From Chloroflexota bacterium (GTDB lineage: Bacteria > Chloroflexota > Limnocylindria > Limnocylindrales > CSP1-4), in assembly GCA_040389445.1 (NCBI GenBank), contig JAZJZX010000003.1:5298-69297 (forward strand): a DNA stretch of 64,000 nucleotides, in the 5' to 3' direction. Positions 24,665 through 35,386 of this stretch are shown one piece after another. A program made the translations under genes and the position numbers. Each line of letters starts with the position of its first letter. Positions within the stretch are counted from its first letter, which is position 1. The notes below the pieces were generated by a model. That model saw nothing but the letters and a program-made list of their open reading frames with translations, did not search any database and was not told the origin of the DNA.

Positions 24665-25450
24665 TCAGGCCGGCTCGTCGGGGGTCGCCGGGTCGGCAAG
24701 GGTGGCGTCGAGATCCTCGAGCCCGAGTGGAAGGCGCCGGATCAGGGCCAGCACGGGGGCATCGCCCGTGACCGCATCGACGGTCATTGACGGCGACCGC
24801 TCGACATCCAATCCGGTCTGGCCGGTCGGCGTGAACCGCCACAGCCGGCTCCGGACCCCGCAGAGGTACGGGCTCGATCGATGCCTCGCCAGAACGCCGG
24901 CCAGGCCCTGGGCTGCCACCGCCTGGAACAGCGCCCGGCCCTCGGCGGGGATGGCCGGAACCGTCAGCACCTCGTCCCCGGGTCGGAGCGTCCGGCGAAG
25001 CTGCTCGCGCCGGCGTTCGAGCGGCTGATTCAGGAGCGATCGACCGTCGAGGTGCAACAGGTCGAAAACGAGGAACGCCACGGGCCGCCCGGGCTCACCG
25101 GATCGTCGCCGGGCGAGTTCGCCGGGGTCGGCGCGCCCTGCGGCGTCGACGACGACGAGCTCACCATCGAGTACCGCCGACCGCGCCGCCACACGCACCC
25201 CGAGCCCGGCCAGTTCCGGCGGCATGATCGGCAGGGGAACCCCGTCGGCACCGAGAAACACGACGCTGCCTCCACCCGCCGTCGCCGCGGGTCCGACCAC
25301 GGCGAGGACGCGCAACCCGCCCCAGGATGGCTCGAACAGATGGTCCGCCGAATCGAAGGGCTCGGAGAGCGTTCTGGCGAGCATCGGGCGCAGCGTGACC
25401 GGCGGGTTCGGCAGCGCCGGCTCGAGGCGAAGCGAAAGCTGGTCGGACAT
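24665..25450 (-). CDS. ATP-dependent DNA ligase adenylation-domain homologue (LigC/LigD-like) with degenerate active site
   Basis: PMLAR, FEPSWGGLR (KxDG absent), VLDGELV, FLVFDLL, LERRREQL, SPY..G.RS..W. Confidence 0.8.
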   Translation of the reverse strand: MSDQLSLRLEPALPNPPVTLRPMLARTLSEPFDSADHLFEPSWGGLRVLAVVGPAATAGGGSVVFLGADGVPLPIMPPELAGLGVRVAARSAVLDGELVVVDAAGRADPGELARRRSGEPGRPVAFLVFDLLHLDGRSLLNQPLERRREQLRRTLRPGDEVLTVPAIPAEGRALFQAVAAQGLAGVLARHRSSPYLCGVRSRLWRFTPTGQTGLDVERSPSMTVDAVTGDAPVLALIRRLPLGLEDLDATLADPATPDEPA

Positions 25451-25517
25451 CGCCGGCCGATGGTAGTCGGTAGACTCTGCGGGGAGCGTCAGTCGTCGTT
25501 CGTACGGGAGCAAGCGT

Positions 25518-27686
25518 TTGACATCGAACTCAAAACGAGGCTCGCGTCCCGACGATCTGTACCGGCTCCGCATCCCCACCGACCCCCGGCTGGCGCCCGA
25601 CGGCCGTGCGATCGTCTGTGTCCTGCGGGAGTCTGCACCGGCTCACGATGGCTATCGCTCCGCCATCTGGCGGGTGGCGCTGGATCCCGAAGGATCGGCA
25701 GCCGGGGAGCCCGAGCGACTGACACTCGGCGTTCGCCAGGACACACACCCTCGCTATGCGCCCGACGGCGCGACGCTGGCCTTTCTGAGCGATCGCCGCA
25801 AGGTGGTGGAGGAGGAGCTCGGCACCACGCCGGACCGCGAGGACGCCGTTCAGGTCCATCTCCTCCCGCTGGATCGCCCGGGCGAGGCACGTCGGCTGAC
25901 AGATCTGCCGCGCGGCGTCGACGACTTCGCGTGGTCCCCCGACGGCACCCGCCTCGCCGTGATCTCGGCGTCCCGGGCCGCCGACCGTGCCGGCGACGAC
26001 CGTGCCCGACGACGACTCCGGGACCCTGGGCCGAACCAGCCGCCGATCAGCGACTACTGGTATTTCGATCGTCTCAACTACCAGTTCAATGGAGCCGGCG
26101 TCGTAGCCGGCCGGACCCTGCACCTGTGGATCGTGGACGTGACCTCCGGTGAGGCGCGTCGGCTGACGAACCTGCCGGCCGGGGTCGGGGGCCCCGCGTG
26201 GTCGCCCGACGGGCGACGGATCGCGATCACGACCGGCCGGCGCCGTGACCACGACCTGGCGTCGTTCGCCCGGGTGGTGGTCGTGGACGTCGAGACCGGG
26301 CGGCCGACGACCGTCGCGGAGCATCGAGACGGCTTCTTTCACAGCCCGGTCTGGCTGGGTCGGGGCGACGAGATCGCCGTGGTCGGCGGCGATCTGCCCC
26401 ATGGCTTGTACCGGTCCGACATCTGGGTGTTTGCCGCGGACGGCTCCGAGCCCGAGCGCGGCCGTAACCGTTCAGCCGGGCACGACCTCATGCCTCGCTC
26501 GGCGATGACGAGTGATACGAGTGTCGATGAGGACGACCGCCTGATCGCGTCGAGCGACGGCCGATCCGTGATCTTCACGGCACCGGTGCTGGGCGCCTAC
26601 GAGGCGTGGCGGATCGATATCGGGGATGGGCACCTCGTCCGGTTGACCGAGGATCGGCACTACCTGTCCGCCATCGACGTCGTGGATCTGGGTCCGGGCG
26701 GCCTGATCATCGGGTCGATACGATCGACGCCGACGCTCCTTCCGGAGCTGTCGGTCGGCTTCGCGCCCGCCGCCTGGCGCACCGATGCCCGACCCGCCGG
26801 CGCCCCCGCCCCGGTGGTGCTGCGAACGGTCTCCTCGTTCAACGGCGCGGTCCAGGACGAGGTGTACCTGCGTCCGGCCGTCGAACGATCGTCGAAGGTC
26901 GATGGGCGGGAGATCCAGGGGTGGCTGATCGCGGCCGGGGACGGAATGCAGCCGACGGTCGTCCAGATCCACGGCGGCCCACACAGCCTCTATGGTTGGG
27001 CCCCGTTGCTCGAATTCCAGATCCTCGCTGCGTCGGGGATGTCCGTCTTCTACTGCAATCCGCGCGGCTCCGAAGGCTATGGTCGTGACTTCAACGAGGC
27101 GAATCTCGCGGACTGGGGCGACGGCCCCATGCGTGACGTCATCGCGGGCGTGGATGCGCTGGTCGCCGACGGGCTCGCCGATCCGGATCGGCTCGGGGTC
27201 ACCGGGGGTTCGTACGGCGGGTACCTGACGACCTGGATCGTCGCGCATGACCACCGGTTCCGCGCGGCGATGACCTGCCGCTCCGTGGCCGATCTTTCGA
27301 TGCTCATGCTTACCGGCGATCTCGGCGGCACGGACTGGGCGAAGATGGAGTTGGGCGCCTACCCCTGGGAAGACCCGGACCTGTATCGCGACCTTTCCCC
27401 ATTGACCCACGCGCCGAACATCCGTACGCCGCTGCTGATTCAGCATGCCGAACAGGACCTCCGGACCACGATCGGGCAGGCCGAGGCGCTGTTCTCGGTC
27501 CTGCGAAAACATCGCCGACCAGTCCGGATGATGCGGGTCCCAGGCGAGTCCCACGAGCTCACAAGATCGGGAACCCCGTTTCGTCGTGCGGAAAACCTCA
27601 TCCAGGTCCGCGACTGGTTCGCGCATTTCCTCGTCCAGGGTCGGAGAACGCTCCCGAGGGCGCCTCGGTCGCGCCACGGGCAGTAG
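25518..27686 (+). CDS. S9 family peptidase (acylaminoacyl/prolyl oligopeptidase-like) with PD40 propeller
   Basis: IHGGP, NPRGSEGYG, GGSYGG, QDLRT, ESHEL; repeated WSPDG. Confidence 0.93.
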   Translation: MTSNSKRGSRPDDLYRLRIPTDPRLAPDGRAIVCVLRESAPAHDGYRSAIWRVALDPEGSAAGEPERLTLGVRQDTHPRYAPDGATLAFLSDRRKVVEEELGTTPDREDAVQVHLLPLDRPGEARRLTDLPRGVDDFAWSPDGTRLAVISASRAADRAGDDRARRRLRDPGPNQPPISDYWYFDRLNYQFNGAGVVAGRTLHLWIVDVTSGEARRLTNLPAGVGGPAWSPDGRRIAITTGRRRDHDLASFARVVVVDVETGRPTTVAEHRDGFFHSPVWLGRGDEIAVVGGDLPHGLYRSDIWVFAADGSEPERGRNRSAGHDLMPRSAMTSDTSVDEDDRLIASSDGRSVIFTAPVLGAYEAWRIDIGDGHLVRLTEDRHYLSAIDVVDLGPGGLIIGSIRSTPTLLPELSVGFAPAAWRTDARPAGAPAPVVLRTVSSFNGAVQDEVYLRPAVERSSKVDGREIQGWLIAAGDGMQPTVVQIHGGPHSLYGWAPLLEFQILAASGMSVFYCNPRGSEGYGRDFNEANLADWGDGPMRDVIAGVDALVADGLADPDRLGVTGGSYGGYLTTWIVAHDHRFRAAMTCRSVADLSMLMLTGDLGGTDWAKMELGAYPWEDPDLYRDLSPLTHAPNIRTPLLIQHAEQDLRTTIGQAEALFSVLRKHRRPVRMMRVPGESHELTRSGTPFRRAENLIQVRDWFAHFLVQGRRTLPRAPRSRHGQ

Positions 27687-28707: not shown

Positions 28708-28771
28708 GGCCGCCACGAACATGTCGGCGGACCGCCCGGAACCGGAGGCGTTGTCCCGGCGTCTCCCGACC

Positions 28772-29677
28772 ATGAACCGACAGATCCTCACCATCGGCGC
28801 ACTTCTGGTCATCGTCGCCGCGGCCTGCGGTTCAGGCGGCCCGTCGCCCTCCCCGTCGCCGACCCCCGGTCCCGCCCGCTCGGTCACAGAGCTGAAGCTT
28901 GCCCTGATCTCGACCTACGGCAACCTCTGGTATTGCGATCGGGACTTCTATCCGATCCAGCGTCAGGACGAGATTCAGAGCGCGAAGGAGCGGTGGGCAG
29001 AGGTAACGGCTGATGCGGCCGCCTTCAAGGCCATCGCCGACGCCGCCTCCCTCGACCCGGCCGGGCCGTTCACGGACGACCAGCGCCTGACCCTCTATCG
29101 ATCCTGGAAGGTCGTGCAGGCCATCGCCCTCGACCCGATCGGCAATGACACCTACCGCTTCGACTATCTGGCCCAGCCAAAGCCCGGCGGGGTCGACGGA
29201 ACGCGAACCGCCGGCACCATCAGGACCGACGGGTCGATCGCGGTCGAGCAGCAGGCAGCCGCCACGGAACCCATCTGTCCGATCTGCCTCGCCCGGGGGA
29301 CGCTGATCGAGACGCCGAACGGTGGCGTCGCGGTCGAGGATCTCCGGATCGGGGACCCGATCTGGACGCTTGGCGCGTCGGGTCACCGAATCGAGGGGAC
29401 GGTCATCGCCCTCGGCTCGACCGTGGCACCGGTCAATCACCGGGTCGTCCATCTCGTCCTCGCCGATGGGCGCACCGTGACGGCGTCGCCCGGCCATCCC
29501 CTTGCTGACGGGCGACGCATCGGAGACCTTCGCGTGGGCGATTCGGTCGACGGTTCGGTCGTGGCCTCTGCGGACCTGCTCGCCTATGCCGGCCGGCGGA
29601 CGTTCGATCTTGTCGTCGCCGGGCCGACCGGCACCTATCTCGTCGACGGTATCCCGCTGCGAAGCACCTTGCGCTGA
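28772..29677 (+). CDS. Lipoprotein with C-terminal Hint (Hedgehog/intein-like) domain
   Basis: Signal peptide plus lipobox AAA-C19 (Cys codon 28826); Hint block A CLARGTLIETPNGGVAVEDLRIGD from 29285, block B ASPGHP, block F TFDL, terminal IPLRST. Confidence 0.85.
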   Translation: MNRQILTIGALLVIVAAACGSGGPSPSPSPTPGPARSVTELKLALISTYGNLWYCDRDFYPIQRQDEIQSAKERWAEVTADAAAFKAIADAASLDPAGPFTDDQRLTLYRSWKVVQAIALDPIGNDTYRFDYLAQPKPGGVDGTRTAGTIRTDGSIAVEQQAAATEPICPICLARGTLIETPNGGVAVEDLRIGDPIWTLGASGHRIEGTVIALGSTVAPVNHRVVHLVLADGRTVTASPGHPLADGRRIGDLRVGDSVDGSVVASADLLAYAGRRTFDLVVAGPTGTYLVDGIPLRSTLR

Positions 29678-29742
29678 TTCCCGGCGTAATGCTTGTCGGG
29701 TATCGCCGGTGCATCGGCCAGGCCGGCCCGCGGCCCCCCGCG

Positions 29743-29768
29743 GGCTGAGTCCCCATAGGTGGTGTAAC
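29743..29768 (-). mobile_element. Probable orphan IS256-family right end (remnant)
   Basis: Minus strand TTACACCACCTATGGGGACTCAGCC resembles IS256-type termini (TACAC-N-GAC-N); no intact transposase beside it. Confidence 0.45.
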
Positions 29769-30078
29769 AGCGGACCGGTCGAGAACTCAATCGGCCACCG
29801 CGTCATCCTCGCGTCGTTGGAGTGAGTTCCCGACGCGGCCGAGCCGCCCGGACGATGCTCAGCCGGTTCCAGCGCGGCCGGTAGTGGTTCCTCCGCGGCA
29901 GCCGCCGCGGGTTGGTATACCTTCGAGACTGGATCTCCGGCATCCGCGCCCTCCTCGAAGGGCACGTTAGCCAGTCTCATCCTCACCGGGGAACTTCACG
30001 TAGCGGCGCCGAACAGACCGGGGATGTACTACTCTCGAGGCCCTCGGCGGCGGCGCTCAACGAGAGTTCGGGCCGCCG

Positions 30079-31194
30079 TTGATGCCCCGCCACTCCGCAA
30101 GGGGTGTATCGGGTCCACCGAGTAGGCTTGAGCAACAATTGGAGGCTCCATTGAGAACGTGGGCAGCCGCGTTCGCCGGCTTTCTCATTCTGCTTCTGAG
30201 CCTTTTGGCTCTCCGCGGGTTGGCAAGGAGCGATCTGGCCGGTATCAGCACGACGCCACGAGCTGTAACGACCCTATCAACGATCGGCTCCCTGATCGAC
30301 GAGATCCAGGCCATCGCCGTTCCGACGTGGAAAGCACCAGATGTCCTTGTCGCGCCCGGATGGTCCGGCCTTATCACAGCGGTTGTCGTCCAAGCTGGAG
30401 ACATAGTTCGGACGGGCCAAACGGTGCTCGTTGTTGACGGCGTCACGCGCGTCGCGGCCGCCACGCCATTTCCCTTCTGGAGGGATTTGCGCCCCGGCGA
30501 TGCCGGCCCGGACGTGAAGATGCTGCAATCGCTCATGACGGACCTCGGCTTCTACGGCGGTGCTGCCACCGGCCAGGTAGATAGAGCCACGTCCGATGCC
30601 GTCTCCAAATGGGGCAACTCACTTGGAGACACGACCGGCACCAGTCTCTTTGACCGTAGTTGGGTTATTTGGCTTCCGGTAGACGTCTTCAAGATCGAAA
30701 GGCTCGATGTTCAAACTGGAGCGTCGGCACCACCTCCCGGCGCAGCCATCGCAGTTGCTGCAGCGCAATTGCTCTCGGTGTCCCTACTTACACAGTCGGA
30801 CGAACCCGTTGGCATCACTGACCCAGCGGCATGGCAGGTACAACTCGGTTCGAGAGTCGCGGGCCTGGCGGCAAGCCAGCCAGTCCGGGTGCTCGAAGCC
30901 GATCTCCAGCGGGTGGCCGATCAGTTCGACGCGGATGCCAAGACGACCCCGGCAGTCATCACGACGAAAACACCTCGCAGTGTCGTGGTCGTGCCCGCTT
31001 CCTCGGTGGGCAGCAACGCGGACGGCGGAACGTGTGTCTGGGTCCCGGGCGATGACGGATACATGCCCGTCCCGGTGAGGGTCGCCGGCGGGTCGTTCAA
31101 CACCGCCCAGCTCGCGAGTGGGCTGCCTGCGGCGAGTACGGTTCTGGTCAATCCAGGCGAGGTTCTTGCCAATCCGACATGTCCCTCGAGCTGA
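30079..31194 (+). CDS. Peptidoglycan-binding (PG_binding_1) periplasmic-adaptor-like protein; start uncertain
   Basis: One TM; lipoyl-like SGLITAVVVQAGDIVRTGQ; PGBD RDLRPGDAGPDVKMLQSLMTDLGFY. Confidence 0.78.
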   Translation: MMPRHSARGVSGPPSRLEQQLEAPLRTWAAAFAGFLILLLSLLALRGLARSDLAGISTTPRAVTTLSTIGSLIDEIQAIAVPTWKAPDVLVAPGWSGLITAVVVQAGDIVRTGQTVLVVDGVTRVAAATPFPFWRDLRPGDAGPDVKMLQSLMTDLGFYGGAATGQVDRATSDAVSKWGNSLGDTTGTSLFDRSWVIWLPVDVFKIERLDVQTGASAPPPGAAIAVAAAQLLSVSLLTQSDEPVGITDPAAWQVQLGSRVAGLAASQPVRVLEADLQRVADQFDADAKTTPAVITTKTPRSVVVVPASSVGSNADGGTCVWVPGDDGYMPVPVRVAGGSFNTAQLASGLPAASTVLVNPGEVLANPTCPSS

Positions 31195-31829
31195 CCCGCG
31201 TCGCGCACTGGTATCGGCCGGGGCAGGAGTTGCTTCGGAACATCTCGATCGTCTTCCGCGCCGGGACCACCACCGCGATCTCAGGTCCATCAGGTTCAGG
31301 GAAAACGACCCTTCTGAGCATCGCCGGGCTCCTTCAAGTCGCGCGGGAAGGCCTCGTGAGTCTTGATGGTCAGGCGATCACGGGCCGCAGACAGGCCGAA
31401 CTCGCACGAGCGAAGATTTCGTGGATCTTCCAATCGGCAAATGTCCTGGGTCGGCGATCCGTGTTCGACAACGTCGCCTTGGGAGGCTTTGCTCGTGGGG
31501 CGGATCGACGGATGCTCCGCAACGACATTGGTGCCTCACTCGAGAGGGTCGGACTAAGTGAATTCGGGGAGCGCCGGGCGGCGACGCTTTCAGGCGGTGA
31601 GTTGCAGCGACTCTCAATAGCTCGTGCGCTCGTCGGCCGTCCGCTCGTTGTGCTTGCCGACGAACCGACAGGTCAGCTTGACCGCGCCAACACCGAGCTA
31701 GTCGCAAGCTTACTCATCGGGTCGTTCGGTAATGAGGCCGCGGTCATCGTCGCGACCCACGATGAGCGGGTGGCAGCCGCGTGCACGCATCACTTTCGGC
31801 TCATCGACGGGGCACTGCACAGCGCATGA
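31179..31829 (+). CDS. ABC transporter ATP-binding protein (LolD/MacB-like)
   Basis: GPSGSGKTT, LSGGELQR, LADEPTGQLD, VATHD. Confidence 0.92.
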   Translation: MSLELTRVAHWYRPGQELLRNISIVFRAGTTTAISGPSGSGKTTLLSIAGLLQVAREGLVSLDGQAITGRRQAELARAKISWIFQSANVLGRRSVFDNVALGGFARGADRRMLRNDIGASLERVGLSEFGERRAATLSGGELQRLSIARALVGRPLVVLADEPTGQLDRANTELVASLLIGSFGNEAAVIVATHDERVAAACTHHFRLIDGALHSA

Positions 31830-32902
31830 GCGGGGGCGAATGGCGACTCCGCGTGATTGTCAACGACGCCTCGCGAAATTTCGTGGCTCGCGGAGCAGCG
31901 TCCCTCGCGTGGTTGGTCCTGACCTCGCTCGTCCTTGGGACGATTGCCCTTGCAGAGCTTGAGGCAGTAGACCGCATACGCCGATTCGAGGCCGAGCGGG
32001 TCGCCGCGGGGGCGTACGTCTTCGTGGCTAGGAGCAACGATGGGCTCCTAGCGGGTCGCTGTGACAGTCTTCGAAGCGTGGACGCCGTTAGGGAGGCCGG
32101 GGGCATTTCTGAGGGAGCAATCGTCAACCTGCGATCAGCACCAGGGCTGTATTTTCAGTCGGGCTATGTTACTCCGGGTGCCCTGAACGTAATGTCAGGG
32201 ACTGATGTTGGCCCGCTGACTCATCGAGGTTGGGTACTCGGGGCTGCTTCCGCCATGGAGCTGCGCGCTGCTCCGGGCTGGATCATCGACGTCGGCGCCG
32301 ATCGCGAACAGGTCATACGCGTCGTCTCATTTGAGCGCCGGAATGTCGCGATCAATCGCTGGATGCTTCAGGTTGTCGGGCCAATCGGGTTGGTTGATGA
32401 ATGCTGGGCCGAATTCGACCGCGCGACCGAGGGCGTCGGGCCGCTCCTTCTCGCTGCCTGGTTCGTAGGCGAACCGGGGCTCGAGGTCAAACGGCTGGTC
32501 TCGGCCGGCACGCTCTCGCGCGACCCGCGCGAGGAGCTGCTGAACAGGCCGCAACAGCACGGTTGGATACCTGGAGGGATGGGGCTCGCATCGGTCGCCT
32601 GGTTCGTGATCTTGTCGAGACGACGCGAGACTGCACTCTATACAGCGGTCGGCCTATCACGCCCCGGACTCGTCATGCTTGTAGGAGTGGAATTCCTACT
32701 GGTGGTTGGGGTGGCTTGGGTCGCGGGAATCCTCATTGCGACCGGTGTCATGTACGCGAGCGGCGCCACATTGTCCGGAGATCAGGTCCTGATGGGCGCC
32801 GTGACGTCCGGCAGTGCGGCCCTACTGGCATCAATCTCTATTCCGATTCTCGTCGTGGTTGGGTCTGGGTCCGCGATCGCACAGGCGCTCAAGGAAACCT
32901 GA
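31826..32902 (+). CDS. ABC transporter permease (MacB/FtsX-like, 1+3 TM)
   Basis: N-terminal TM, large extracytoplasmic loop, SRRRETALYTAVG; ATGA overlap. Confidence 0.75.
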   Translation: MSGGEWRLRVIVNDASRNFVARGAASLAWLVLTSLVLGTIALAELEAVDRIRRFEAERVAAGAYVFVARSNDGLLAGRCDSLRSVDAVREAGGISEGAIVNLRSAPGLYFQSGYVTPGALNVMSGTDVGPLTHRGWVLGAASAMELRAAPGWIIDVGADREQVIRVVSFERRNVAINRWMLQVVGPIGLVDECWAEFDRATEGVGPLLLAAWFVGEPGLEVKRLVSAGTLSRDPREELLNRPQQHGWIPGGMGLASVAWFVILSRRRETALYTAVGLSRPGLVMLVGVEFLLVVGVAWVAGILIATGVMYASGATLSGDQVLMGAVTSGSAALLASISIPILVVVGSGSAIAQALKET

Positions 32903-32942
32903 TTCGTCGGCACCTTCGTCTGCTCGCAACTCGTCTGTTCCG

Positions 32943-33509
32943 TTACTGGGCGACGTCGACGCATTCTAGGTACGCGTCATGGGCAGCATCGCCGACTCCC
33001 GACAGGGCGGACAACAATTCGGCGTTGTCGGCCGGCTCCTGCGGGACGTCGTATCCCTGCTCCGCCAGACACGCTGCGACTCGGGAGAGCAGCTGCCGCT
33101 CACTATCGCCGGGGTTTAGGGCGACTCGCCACCCCTCCGCGACGTACTGGAAGTGCTCAACGTCGCACTTTGATACAACCGCGGCCGGATCCTCCGCCGC
33201 GGTGCCATCCGCGACAGACATGCCTTGGATCAGCCCGTCGTCATCGCGCTCCAGGGCCAGGATCACCACGCCCGCTGTTTCAATGCATGCCCGGTAGGCG
33301 AGAAAAGCGCGCTCGTACTCAGAGCGGTCAACGACGCCGTCTGTCAGGGCAATCCGCTGCTCCTCCGGAGCATCCGCCAGAATCGCGGGTAGCCGCTCGA
33401 CCCATGCCTCGCCATACGTGAGCGCATTGCGTTCCGATGGCGGGCTCGAACCGCATGCTCCGAGCGCGATCGCGAGTATCGCGCTAGCAACCAGACGCCA
33501 TTCACTCAC
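32943..33509 (-). CDS. Hypothetical lipoprotein with four Cys in two helical repeats
   Basis: Lipobox LGAC; DGVVDRSEYERAFLAYRAC; overlaps stop of the upstream secreted gene. Confidence 0.8.
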   Translation of the reverse strand: MSEWRLVASAILAIALGACGSSPPSERNALTYGEAWVERLPAILADAPEEQRIALTDGVVDRSEYERAFLAYRACIETAGVVILALERDDDGLIQGMSVADGTAAEDPAAVVSKCDVEHFQYVAEGWRVALNPGDSERQLLSRVAACLAEQGYDVPQEPADNAELLSALSGVGDAAHDAYLECVDVAQ

Positions 33510-33865
33510 GCCTTCGATTGACAGATCGCATTGCCGCAGGCGTACTGCCAGTAGATTGAGAGGATGTCGTAGGTCCGATTGATGTGGCTTGCGAGGTTCT
33601 GCTGCGGGCCGTAGATCGTGACCGCCCCAATGTCGGAGTCGTACCAGCGCAGGACGACCTGCACGTTGTCACAGCTGCTGAGCTCGATCGTTTCGCCTTC
33701 GGCGCTTTGATCCGAGTAGCCCGTGTGCTCCCACGACACGTCGCATGCGCCCTGAATGTTCGTGACCGTGCCCGAGTGGTAGTGGTTGATGTGGGAGGCG
33801 CCGGCCGCTGCTGGCAAAGCCAAGGCCAGGACCAGCGCACTCAGGGTGATGACGAGGCGACGCAT
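33506..33865 (-). CDS. Small secreted protein (Sec signal, about 96-aa mature part, 4 Cys)
   Basis: MRRLVITLSALVLALALPAAAGA signal; aromatic/His-rich mature region; C-terminal CGNAIC. Confidence 0.75.
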   Translation of the reverse strand: MRRLVITLSALVLALALPAAAGASHINHYHSGTVTNIQGACDVSWEHTGYSDQSAEGETIELSSCDNVQVVLRWYDSDIGAVTIYGPQQNLASHINRTYDILSIYWQYACGNAICQSKA

Positions 33866-33991
33866 CTACTTACCCCCCCCAACTGGGCCGCCGTCGGCGC
33901 CACCTGCCGAAATTGTCGCGGCTTCCGTCGTGTGGTGGCCGCGTCCAATATAGGTCCCCGGTACGCGTCAGTAAATAGGGCAAACGCCCTG

Positions 33992-35280
33992 AGTGACGTA
34001 GCGTTTCTTGTGGGCTTTCGAATCGAGGGGGCGTACAACTTCAGGTGGTTCCAACACCCCAAGGAGTACGCCCGATGCGAACTGTACCGGCCCTGACCGA
34101 GCGGACCGAGCGCGAACGGTGGCGCGAGGTCCGCGACGAGGACGACGTGTGGGGCGACCTGCGTCCCGAGCTGCTTGAGGCCGTCCGCTCGATCCTCACC
34201 ACGACGATGGAGGACGAGCTGGCAGCCGAATTGGTCGCCAGCCGCTACGAGCGGACGCCGTGGCGCCGTGACACCCGCAATGGCGCCTATCACCGGACCC
34301 TCGTGACCGAGCTCGGGGCGATCATCGACCTGCGCGTGCCCCGCCGGCGGCTCGTGCCGTACCGGCCCTCGTTCCTGGCCCGGGCGGCGCGCCGGACGCG
34401 CTGCGTCGATCGGGTCCTGCGCCAGGCCTTCCTGCGCGGGCTCTCGACCCGGGAGACGGCAGCCTTGGCCGAGACCCTCACCGGGGTGGCCCTGTCGGCG
34501 GCCGCGGTCAGCCGCCTGGCCCGCGACCTCGATGGTCAGGTCGCGGCCTTCCATCGCCGCCCAATCGCCTTTGCCGCCCGCTATCTGCTCGTGGATGGCC
34601 TGTGGGTGTCGGTCCGCGGCAGCGCCGGTCGCAGCCAGCGGCGAGTCGTCCTCGCCGCCTACGGGATCGACGAGGCGGGCCGTCGCGAACTGCTCGATTA
34701 TCGTCAGGGCGCTTCCGAATCGGCCGTCGAGTGGACTCGCTTCCTGACGTCCCTCGTGACCCGGGGCCTCGATCCCGAGGCCATCCGCCTCGTCACGGCC
34801 GACGGCGCCGGCGGGATCGCCGCCGCGGTCGCCGAGGTCTTTCCGATGGCCGACCTGCAGCGCTGCTGGACACACCGCATCCGGAACCTGCTGGGAGCGA
34901 TACCACTGGGCGAACGGCGGGCCTGTCTCGGTGGCCTGCGGGCGATCTATCGGGCCCGGACCCGGCGGGTCGCGGTGGCCGCCTACTGGCGCTGGGCGAC
35001 GACCTGGCGGACCCGTCACCCGGTTCTCGTCCGCCATCTCGAGCGCGACCTCGACGAGCTCCTCGCCGTGTTCGTCCTGCCCGAGCCGATCCGCCTCCAC
35101 CTGCGGACCACGAACCTCATCGAGCGCGCCTTTCGCGACTCCGTCGACGGATCCGGCCGATGGGTGCACTCGCCGATCGCCGCTCAGCCGACCGGATCCT
35201 CTACGGCCAGGTGCTTCGTCTCAACGAACTCCTGGTCCGCCGCCCCCTCGCGACATTCACACAAGAGACTTGACGTCACC
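33992..35280 (+). mobile_element. IS256-family insertion sequence, 1289 bp, 9-bp target-site duplication
   Basis: TSD AACGCCCTG at 33983-33991 and 35281-35289; imperfect terminal IRs AGTGACGTAGCGTTTCTTGTG and GGTGACGTCAAGTCTCTTGTG. Confidence 0.92.
34075..35273 (+). pseudogene. IS256 (Mutator-like) transposase with a 1-nt deletion frameshift near 35138
   Basis: RNGAYHR, GLSTRE, YLLVDG, LVTADG, QRCWTH, TTNLIERAF; the expected LRRRIRPMG C-terminus continues in another frame. Confidence 0.88.
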
Positions 35281-35386
35281 AACGCCCTGTGCATCCCCAC
35301 GTCCGTGCTGACGCGCCCAGCACAGCAGTGAGAGCCCACTCCATCAGGCTGGGGTTGTCAGAAGCCAGCAGTTGGAGGTGCTCGAG

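Follow-up and report, generated by a model that had tools for sequence, protein, structure and literature searches.

The gene considered here, which we call the Hint gene, lies on the forward strand of a 64,000-nucleotide stretch of DNA (the window; G+C 68.7%) from a Chloroflexota bacterium of the order Limnocylindrales, contig JAZJZX010000003.1 of GenBank assembly GCA_040389445.1. According to the open reading frame (ORF) list and the sequence it occupies positions 28772–29677, stop included, and encodes a protein of 301 residues in four parts: a lipoprotein signal peptide, a Pro/Ser linker, a 133-residue N-terminal domain (N-domain) and a 127-residue Hint domain. The reading frame closes with a TGA at 29675–29677, after the C-terminus ...GIPLRSTLR, and no further copy of the gene is present elsewhere in the window. 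An original prediction, made from the letters of this DNA, had described a lipoprotein that ends in a Hedgehog-like Hint domain, and its ORF and all of its coordinates were borne out (Cys19 at 28826, Hint residue Cys1 at 29285, the SPGH motif at 29486–29497, the block F Asp at 29606 and the stop at 29675). Beyond that prediction, we report an invariant Cys(-3)-Pro-Ile-Cys1 junction between the two domains, a third invariant cysteine (Cys55) and a promoter of the extracytoplasmic function (ECF) type. The architecture lies far beyond chance, because at least 1240 homologues at E ≤ 1e-3 (word-indexed search) share it.

The precursor begins with a lipoprotein signal peptide (residues 1–18, MNRQILTIGALLVIVAAA), identified from sequence and conservation and followed by Cys19 (TGC, 28826–28828), the two together spanning 28772–28828. 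The segment reads MNRQ-ILTIGALLVIV-AAA-C19 and has the features expected of a lipoprotein, namely a charged n-region (MNR), a hydrophobic h-region (ILTIGALLVIVAAA) and a lipobox of the form [LVI..][ASTG][GAS]-Cys within the first ~35 residues. Cys19 is kept in 116 of 120 close homologues and is invariant in alignment A1. A lipobox-like motif is found in 143 of 173 full-length family members, the remainder having a signal peptide or a transmembrane anchor. The Hint protein is predicted to be a lipoprotein lipidated on Cys19, and a substrate of Lgt and Lsp. An extracytoplasmic location is supported by the lipobox, signal peptide or transmembrane anchor of the family members, together with fusions to a peptidoglycan-binding domain (PG_binding_1) in two of them. 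Next comes a Pro/Ser/Gly-rich flexible tether of residues 20–35 (28829–28876), GSGGPSPSPSPTPGPA, the linker between Cys19 and the N-domain reading GSGGPSPSPSPTPGP. In a full-length AlphaFold2 (AF2) model built on 64 homologues the predicted local distance difference test (pLDDT) score of the tether is 54–60, and its sequence and length vary among homologues.

The Hint domain and its junction

That the C-terminal half of the protein (residues 172–298, 29285–29665) is a genuine Hint fold, as had been proposed, was confirmed by Pfam, Foldseek and profile alignments. Pfam Hint_2 (PF13403) scored 33.1 bits against a cut-off of 28.4, the alignment covering profile positions 1–35 only. Hint_2 is the best and only consistent Pfam family here: all 49 of a set of diverse family members, 33–55% identical to the query, match it above the gathering threshold (best E 4.9e-10), with further matches to Vint in seven, to Hint (PF01079) in three and to PT-HINT in a few. 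The full-length model has a mean pLDDT of 85 and a predicted template modelling score (pTM) of 0.60, and the Hint half lies at pLDDT 82–97 except for one block at 76. Foldseek aligned this model with 47 Hint structures of the PDB at E ≤ 1e-3 and with template modelling scores (TMt) of up to 0.78. They include a Clostridium bacterial intein-like (BIL) domain (2lwy, TMt 0.78), the MchDnaB-1 intein (6riy, E 6e-8), the Hedgehog HhC domain (1at0 and 6tyy, TMt 0.71–0.72) and the redox-trapped DnaE intein 3nzm.

Aligned with PDB sequences, the family profile puts C172 at Cys1 and S239/H242 of the block B motif Ser239-Pro-Gly-His242 (29486–29497) on Thr69/His72 of Ssp DnaE. It also puts T-(Y/F)-D279-L at the block F Asp (Asp279, 29606–29608) and Y-W-A-N-G-I-L at the start of block G, the strand of which here is Y289-LVDGIPLR-S298. 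The block A Cys, the block B (T/S)-x-x-H and the block F Asp are all present, and the conservation of Cys1, His and Asp on which the original prediction depends is complete, with C172, S239, H242 and D279 invariant in the 49 diverse members alongside L173, G184, G194, D232, G233 and Y289.

The end of the domain is of a different kind from that of an intein. The positions of the canonical His-Asn|Cys are taken by Arg297-Ser298|Thr299, an equivalence that follows from a count of five residues past the block G Gly and from alignment to CatC 6dsl_B, and the block F His is missing (GPTGTY). Thr299 stands at the '+1' position of a canonical intein, and the tail Thr299-Leu300-Arg301 with the TGA (29666–29677) completes the gene. 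S298, T299 and L300 are each conserved at 90% or more in the distant set of homologues, and T299 is invariant in the close set. We considered protein splicing with TLR as a mini C-extein and rejected it on the missing terminal Asn, penultimate His and block F His; splicing is excluded because only three residues follow the Hint, and the earlier statement that there is no C-extein to splice stands. For comparison, two alphaproteobacterial plasmid Hint_2 proteins were translated, one from Phaeobacter (WP_024099119) and one from Neokomagataea (WP_170211108), whose Hints end EGVPSESF and DGMLTESY. Judged by eye against these two reference proteins, DGIPLRSTL shares with EGVPSESFY and DGMLTESYL a C-terminal motif without His-Asn, G-x-x-x-E/x-S-aromatic/aliphatic. 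Because two ordinary Hint_2 proteins end in SES(F/Y), Ser298 reads as the conserved Ser of the Hint_2 C-terminal motif and not as a degenerate Asn. By these residues the N–S acyl shift appears fully equipped, with the residues for Asn cyclisation and splicing absent. The Hint protein is to be classed neither as an intein, in view of its terminal residues, nor as a Hog domain, having no sterol-recognition region and no GCF junction.

We take Pfam Hint_2 to be the family of the B-type BIL domains, which were reportedly described by Amitai et al. 2003 and Dassa et al. 2004. Bacterial BIL and Hint_2 domains have been shown to self-cleave. Reviews ascribe to BIL domains an intein-like N-terminal self-cleavage and place them in non-conserved secreted proteins (PMC7765530), and autocatalytic N-terminal (and atypical C-terminal) cleavage is stated for BIL-type domains (PMC7765530, PMC5874633). 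Besides the Pfam match, the Hint protein has in common with these domains a Cys-(L/F)-x-x-G-T start, the block B (S/T)-x-x-H, the block F Asp and a G-x-x-x-x-Ser ending without His-Asn. The differences lie at the two ends and in the company the domain keeps. In the typical Hint_2 proteins from Phaeobacter and Neokomagataea the junction is Ile|Cys-Phe or Ala|Cys-Phe with no Cys at -3, and the Hint ends ...SES(F/Y) and is followed by 45–200 more residues. The Chloroflexota family, in contrast, has an invariant CPIC junction and an x-S-T-L end with 1–10 residues after it, combines the Hint with a dedicated N-domain and a lipoprotein anchor, and occurs almost wholly in Chloroflexota (Limnocylindria) instead of Alphaproteobacteria.

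The junction itself reads Cys169-Pro170-Ile171-Cys172 (29276–29287), with Cys172 (TGC, 29285–29287) as Hint residue 1 and Ile171|Cys172 as the scissile bond predicted from conservation. The stretch CPICL is invariant in 120 close and 49 distant homologues. The engineered CPGC Ssp DnaE redox-trap intein (PDB 3nzm, 4gig), reportedly the work of Callahan et al. 2011, has the same register, Cys(-3)-Pro(-2)-x(-1)-Cys(1), and the family profile tCPICLargT aligns column for column on fCPGCLSFGT of the redox-trap precursors 4gig and 3nzm; CPIC is an instance of the Cys(-3)-Pro-x-Cys1 motif of a redox-trap Hint. In such proteins a disulfide between Cys(-3) and Cys1 stops N-terminal cleavage until it is reduced, and it occurs natively in the Pyrococcus abyssi (Pab) MoaA intein (PMC3922620). 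Unlike in the Ssp DnaE and MoaA redox-trap inteins, the motif here is natural, invariant family-wide and extracytoplasmic, its disulfide is predicted, and a third invariant cysteine, Cys55, is possibly the real partner of Cys169.

Most mature proteins among the 173 full-length members contain just three cysteines (C55, C169 and C172), and Cys1 is the sole Cys of the Hint in 170 of the 173. Evidence on their pairing comes from proteins with two N-domains in tandem before the Hint (P0152, P0168, P0198, P0228, P0241 and P0245). The Hint-distal copy is without CPIC and mostly without the DPD motif; it keeps the equivalent of Cys55 in five of the six, its beta2-beta3 loop has gained a Cys in four of the six, and in one further tandem case Cys55 is gone and the loop holds two Cys. 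This suggests that Cys55 is a disulfide cysteine, because the Hint-distal copies gain a compensating loop Cys. In the Hint-proximal copy its partner may be Cys169, on a tail that emerges, in a beta-meander topology, beside the beta2-beta3 loop. The DSSP string of the full-length model contains isolated beta-bridges at residues 52/54 and 168, which would fit a Cys55 loop that rests on the Cys169 tail. We favour a three-cysteine cluster that contains a disulfide, either a Cys55–Cys169 clamp that leaves Cys172 free or a lock on Cys172. Under either arrangement, reactions at the scissile bond would be expected to respond to redox conditions outside the cell.

The N-domain, the family and the promoter

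The N-domain (residues 36–168, 133 residues, 28877–29275) is modelled as helices followed by a four-strand antiparallel sheet, and AF2 of the domain alone reached a pLDDT of 95.3 and a pTM of 0.88. It matched no Pfam or NCBIfam family. Its structural comparison covered the PDB and BFVD, and Foldseek returned nothing significant from the former (best E 0.065, TM ≤0.25) or the latter (best E 0.04, TM ≤0.33). Among the 49 diverse members C55 (28934–28936), D56, P61, K113 (29108–29110) and G148 are invariant and Y109 and D58 nearly so, and outside the invariant positions the domain has diverged to ~30% mean column identity. Its best-conserved feature is the loop (W/F)-(Y/F)-C55-D-P-D-(F/Y)-Y-P, along with two residues of the long helix, Y109 and K113.

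When 1.84 billion cluster representatives were searched exhaustively by HMMER with just the N-domain as query, 300 of them matched at E ≤ 1e-3. Among the best 150 of these 300, each complete protein consists of the N-domain, x-CPICL and a Hint of ~130 residues; CPICL is present in all 59 full-length representatives, and in the complete ones the Hint ends (A/G/R)-S-T-(L/I) and is followed by 1–10 residues. Stand-alone N-domain proteins were rejected, given that the 73 of these 150 without a recognisable Hint consist of 43 contig-end truncations and 30 frameshifted Arg/Pro-rich read-throughs. The N-domain and the Hint are an obligate pair, because every complete protein has both and the Hint-less cases are truncated or frameshifted, and there is no credible Hint-less N-domain.

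The protein database contains an entry identical to the Hint protein (P0001), and proteins 85–91% identical to it also come from Chloroflexota metagenome-assembled genomes. The 120 best homologues are all 262–359 residues long (99 of them 300–319) and commonly end ...GIPLGSTLRP, and the PG_binding_1 fusions mentioned above, with the extra domain at the N-terminus, make up two of the 49 diverse members. From GTDB, at one genome per species, 74 loci were recovered, and their labels are nearly all Chloroflexota, Candidatus Limnocylindria or Limnocylindrales; the small number with odd labels could reflect binning noise.

In the library that we could search, neither this family nor a lipoprotein–Hint architecture was the subject of any paper, and none joined a Hint domain, a lipoprotein and autoprocessing, the query 'Hint_2' being swamped by the unrelated human HINT2. 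The architecture can be called uncharacterised, as the original prediction had it, but not unprecedented: the domain is an ordinary Pfam Hint_2, NCBI already names the homologues 'Hint domain-containing protein', and Burglin 2008 described bacterial secreted proteins with a C-terminal Hint-like domain, among them Myxococcus MXAN_6253, Stigmatella STIAU_1829 and Photorhabdus plu1731 (PMC2362128). The latter resemble the Hint protein in their signal peptide, two conserved upstream Cys and a Hint-like domain at the very C-terminus, in what is a bioinformatic description only (PMC2362128). They form a different family, from Proteobacteria and Myxococcota, with junctions NSC|MAAGT or YGC|IAEGT and other endings, and similarity between them and the N-domain of the Chloroflexota family was not detectable. 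What is new here is the setting of a Hint_2-type domain: a closely kept architecture, an N-domain of a new fold, a CPxC junction that occurs naturally and a promoter of the ECF type.

Directly upstream of the gene, at 28738–28763 (+), lies the promoter-like motif GGAACC-N17-CGTC, with the ATG 8 nucleotides later. AAC and CGT are the promoter signature of ECF sigma factors. Of 73 related loci, 59 have the form GGAAC-N15-19-CGTC directly 5' of the orthologous gene; the spacer is exactly N17 in 57 of these, and the motif usually ends 7–10 nucleotides before the start codon (L001–L075). At the background rate of the motif, 0.077 per kb per strand, ~1.8 loci would be expected by chance against the 59 observed. 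If only the N17 spacer is allowed, the motif occurs 65 times in all related loci (~0.94 Mb, both strands), and 56 of these occurrences are at the Hint gene. Transcription of the Hint gene apparently depends on an ECF-type sigma factor, and the position of the motif implies a leaderless or near-leaderless mRNA and membership of an ECF regulon. Scans around the gene for sigma-70-like promoters, terminators, tRNAs and Rfam families were all empty.

The motif also bears on the start codon. An in-frame ATG at 28721, with GAGG 11 nucleotides 5' of it, would open a 318-residue ORF (MSADRPEPEALSRRLPT...) in which SRR looks Tat-like. This longer ORF, with its possible twin-arginine 'SRRLPT', was rejected as a general start, given that stops interrupt the upstream frame in L005, L010 and L011. 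Across related loci the conservation of 28721–28771 (+) is that of a DNA motif and not of a peptide, and the ordinary Sec-type lipoprotein signals of distant homologues also count against a start at 28721. The extension is most likely promoter DNA rather than coding sequence. We place the start at 28772, and not at 28721, because the promoter-like motif ends 8 nucleotides upstream of it and the upstream frame has stops.

Five related loci (L037, L043, L046, L067 and L072) carry genes for an ECF sigma factor (~174 residues) and a zinc-finger anti-sigma factor (~283 residues) at ~+2.7 to +4.3 kb, two genes downstream of the Hint gene. A role of this neighbouring pair as regulator of the Hint gene was not supported, its own upstream motif being a different one (GATCTGTCACAGTCG, in at least three loci: L043, L046 and L072).

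Proposed processing and its alternatives

Because the acyl-shift residues are invariant and the splicing residues are absent, a thioester and N-terminal cleavage are the natural expectation for this protein. We think it probable that the Hint protein is an exported, lipid-anchored precursor whose Hint_2-type domain acts once on itself, by redox-sensitive N-terminal cleavage only, at Ile171|Cys172 and via a thioester; cleavage at this bond, taken by itself, we hold to be likely. After Sec export, lipidation on Cys19 and oxidative folding outside the membrane, Cys172 would attack the carbonyl of Ile171 in an N–S acyl shift assisted by Ser239/His242 and Asp279. Resolution of the thioester without splicing would detach a Hint of ~14 kDa and leave an N-domain of ~16 kDa on the membrane, with the new C-terminus ...Glu-Pro-Ile-Cys-Pro-Ile. 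The cut products would carry a C-terminal ...EPICPI and an N-terminal peptide CLARGTLIETPNGG.... Cleavage would need a free Cys172 and is probably redox-gated, either by a Cys55–Cys169 disulfide that pins the junction or by a pair with Cys172 that locks the nucleophile, and expression would apparently be by an ECF-type sigma factor. On redox control, on what resolves the thioester and on the role of the N-domain we can, as on cleavage itself, only infer. For the nucleophile, water is the default by analogy, hydrolysis being the default fate of N-terminal thioesters in inteins and BIL domains (PMC7765530). No conserved partner enzyme was found beside the Hint gene across related loci, and the Hint protein would therefore be self-sufficient.

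Several points weigh against such a processing. A beta-branched Ile at -1 is generally slow in thioester chemistry. The cleavage is a prediction drawn entirely from sequence and fold, and the Hint_2 alignment over the first 35 profile positions marks the domain as a divergent member. The disulfide pairing is argued purely from Cys counts, the DSSP bridges at 52/54 and 168 and the comparison of tandem copies, in a full-length model whose pTM of 0.60 makes the inter-domain geometry uncertain. Part of the invariance of Cys172 could come from a structural disulfide role, and the ECF assignment of the promoter is made solely on its consensus.

The nucleophile need not be water. It is conceivable, and we advance it tentatively, that the Hint is a built-in single-use ligase, in which the obligate N-domain selects the nucleophile (an envelope amine or hydroxyl, or one of its own side chains), the three cysteines form a redox switch and an envelope-stress ECF sigma factor controls the gene. 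If this is true and the nucleophile belongs to the envelope, the lipoprotein would be covalently stapled to the wall of the monoderm-like Chloroflexota envelope, as the first bacterial counterpart of Hedgehog-type protein-to-non-protein ligation.

To our knowledge, Hedgehog, with its attachment of cholesterol, is the only case in which a non-splicing Hint domain is known to perform useful chemistry. The likeness to its HhC/Hog part is real in that a secreted N-terminal domain is followed by a terminal Hint that does not splice and has no C-extein, with the fold matched to 1at0 and 6tyy. It is also expected that a Cys1 thioester frees the N-domain here and that the N-domain is N-terminally lipidated. 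A ligation modelled closely on Hedgehog would have the Ile171 thioester attacked by an external nucleophile, such as a lipid head group, a glycan hydroxyl or an amine of peptidoglycan or lipid II. The N-domain would then be lipid-anchored at its N-terminus and covalently fixed at its C-terminus, as a Braun-lipoprotein-like tether or the product of a self-contained sortase-like reaction. The invariant C55, D56 and K113 of the obligate N-domain, with the nearly invariant Y109 and D58, could bind or activate such a nucleophile, and the peptidoglycan-binding domain of two members and a promoter of the ECF (envelope-type) class would fit an envelope target.

Hog, however, consists of a Hint and a sterol-recognition region, and the Hint protein has no equivalent of the latter, ending three residues past the Hint. 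Its junction is Ile|Cys-Leu where Hedgehog has Gly|Cys-Phe, its Hint sequence is nearer Hint_2 than Hog (PF01079 being matched by the three of 49 members noted above), and its N-terminal lipid would come from the bacterial lipoprotein pathway and not from an acyltransferase. In Hedgehog the N-domain bears a C-terminal lipid adduct, whereas a lipid or other adduct at that end is hypothetical in the Chloroflexota family. With no conserved partner or substrate-supplying gene, no similarity of the N-domain to any known ligand-binding fold in the PDB or BFVD, and hydrolysis as the default for such thioesters, we regard this ligation as unlikely, and the transfer to an external nucleophile that the original prediction had put forward on the Hedgehog model was not directly supported.

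The thioester could also be captured within the protein, by Cys55 or Cys169 to give a C-terminal thiolactone (a stored thioester) or by Lys113 to give a side-chain-to-tail isopeptide, with the N-domain left cyclised, stabilised or reactive. C55, C169 and K113 are invariant despite the ~30% mean column identity of the N-domain, the beta-bridges at 52/54 and 168 fit a Cys55 loop lying on the Cys169 tail, and in the tandem proteins the copy next to the Hint preserves the CDPD motif best. Yet Cys55 is also kept in Hint-distal copies with a different Cys partner, which speaks for an ordinary disulfide role, a thiolactone ring of the three residues Cys169–Ile171 would be strained, and no such Hint-driven reaction was found described in our literature searches. 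The idea is purely inferential and we consider it quite improbable.

A Hint that has lost autoprocessing and persists as a structural or binding module, its Cys serving as disulfides or metal ligands only, is likewise highly doubtful and is the reading least consistent with the invariant Cys1, His and Asp: cleavage is a prediction, Hint_2 aligns by sequence over 35 positions, and CPxC with the third Cys could form a metal site (a weak phmmer match joins the junction to the DnaJ zinc-finger CxxCxGxG, E 0.09), but invariance of Cys1, the block B His and the block F Asp at 33–55% identity is hard to explain without catalysis, and 170 of 173 members exclude other Cys from the Hint.

The family offers a compact test case, with ~280 mature residues, nothing after the Hint and an extracellular location, and it has many members, well conserved, in a phylum that has received little study. 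Redox-gated cleavage of the precursor, or transfer to the envelope, would if true show what extracytoplasmic bacterial Hint domains are for, and redox gating would in addition provide a possible natural redox-controlled self-cleaving tag. With mere hydrolysis it would be one more self-removing pro-domain.

Neighbouring genes

Among related loci the gene order is an ABC ATPase, an ABC-2 permease, an ATP-dependent ligase domain, sometimes an S9 peptidase, DeoC, the Hint gene and a convergent S9 peptidase. This order is kept among closer relatives only, mostly at 55% identity or more and in a few cases down to ~51%, and DeoC is 79–97% identical across the syntenic loci. Distant members (L054–L066, L077 and L079) have unrelated neighbours, such as RbfA/IF-2 in L077 and Crp, SprT-like and FTR1 in L079. 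The synteny is inherited and passive, because DeoC is that similar and the order is limited to closer relatives, and a functional partner from the neighbourhood was rejected, the order being a passive synteny of housekeeping genes.

In the window, the upstream neighbours include a 304-residue protein at 24665–25579 (-) that comprises only the adenylation domain of ATP-dependent DNA ligases, a gene that is syntenic with the ABC-2 transporter pair and DeoC in many Limnocylindria genomes. A PD40/S9 prolyl-oligopeptidase-family protein is encoded at 25518–27686 (+).

Downstream, 400 nucleotides (29678–30078) without a convincing listed ORF separate the Hint gene from the next gene. They hold a G+C-rich inverted repeat (~29726–29747, GCCCGCGG-CCCC-CCGCGGGC) with no T-run, and Rfam, tRNA and terminator scans of this interval were empty. 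In most related loci the Hint gene is followed by a convergent S9 peptidase, a YhhN protein and aldehyde dehydrogenases. In the window the synteny with relatives is broken over 30079–35331, where a weakly PG_binding_1/HlyD-like protein (30079–31194) is followed by an ABC ATPase (31179–31829), an FtsX-type permease (31781–32902; marginal FtsX match, 24.3 bits against a cut-off of 25.5) and a Mutator-family transposase (34045–35331).

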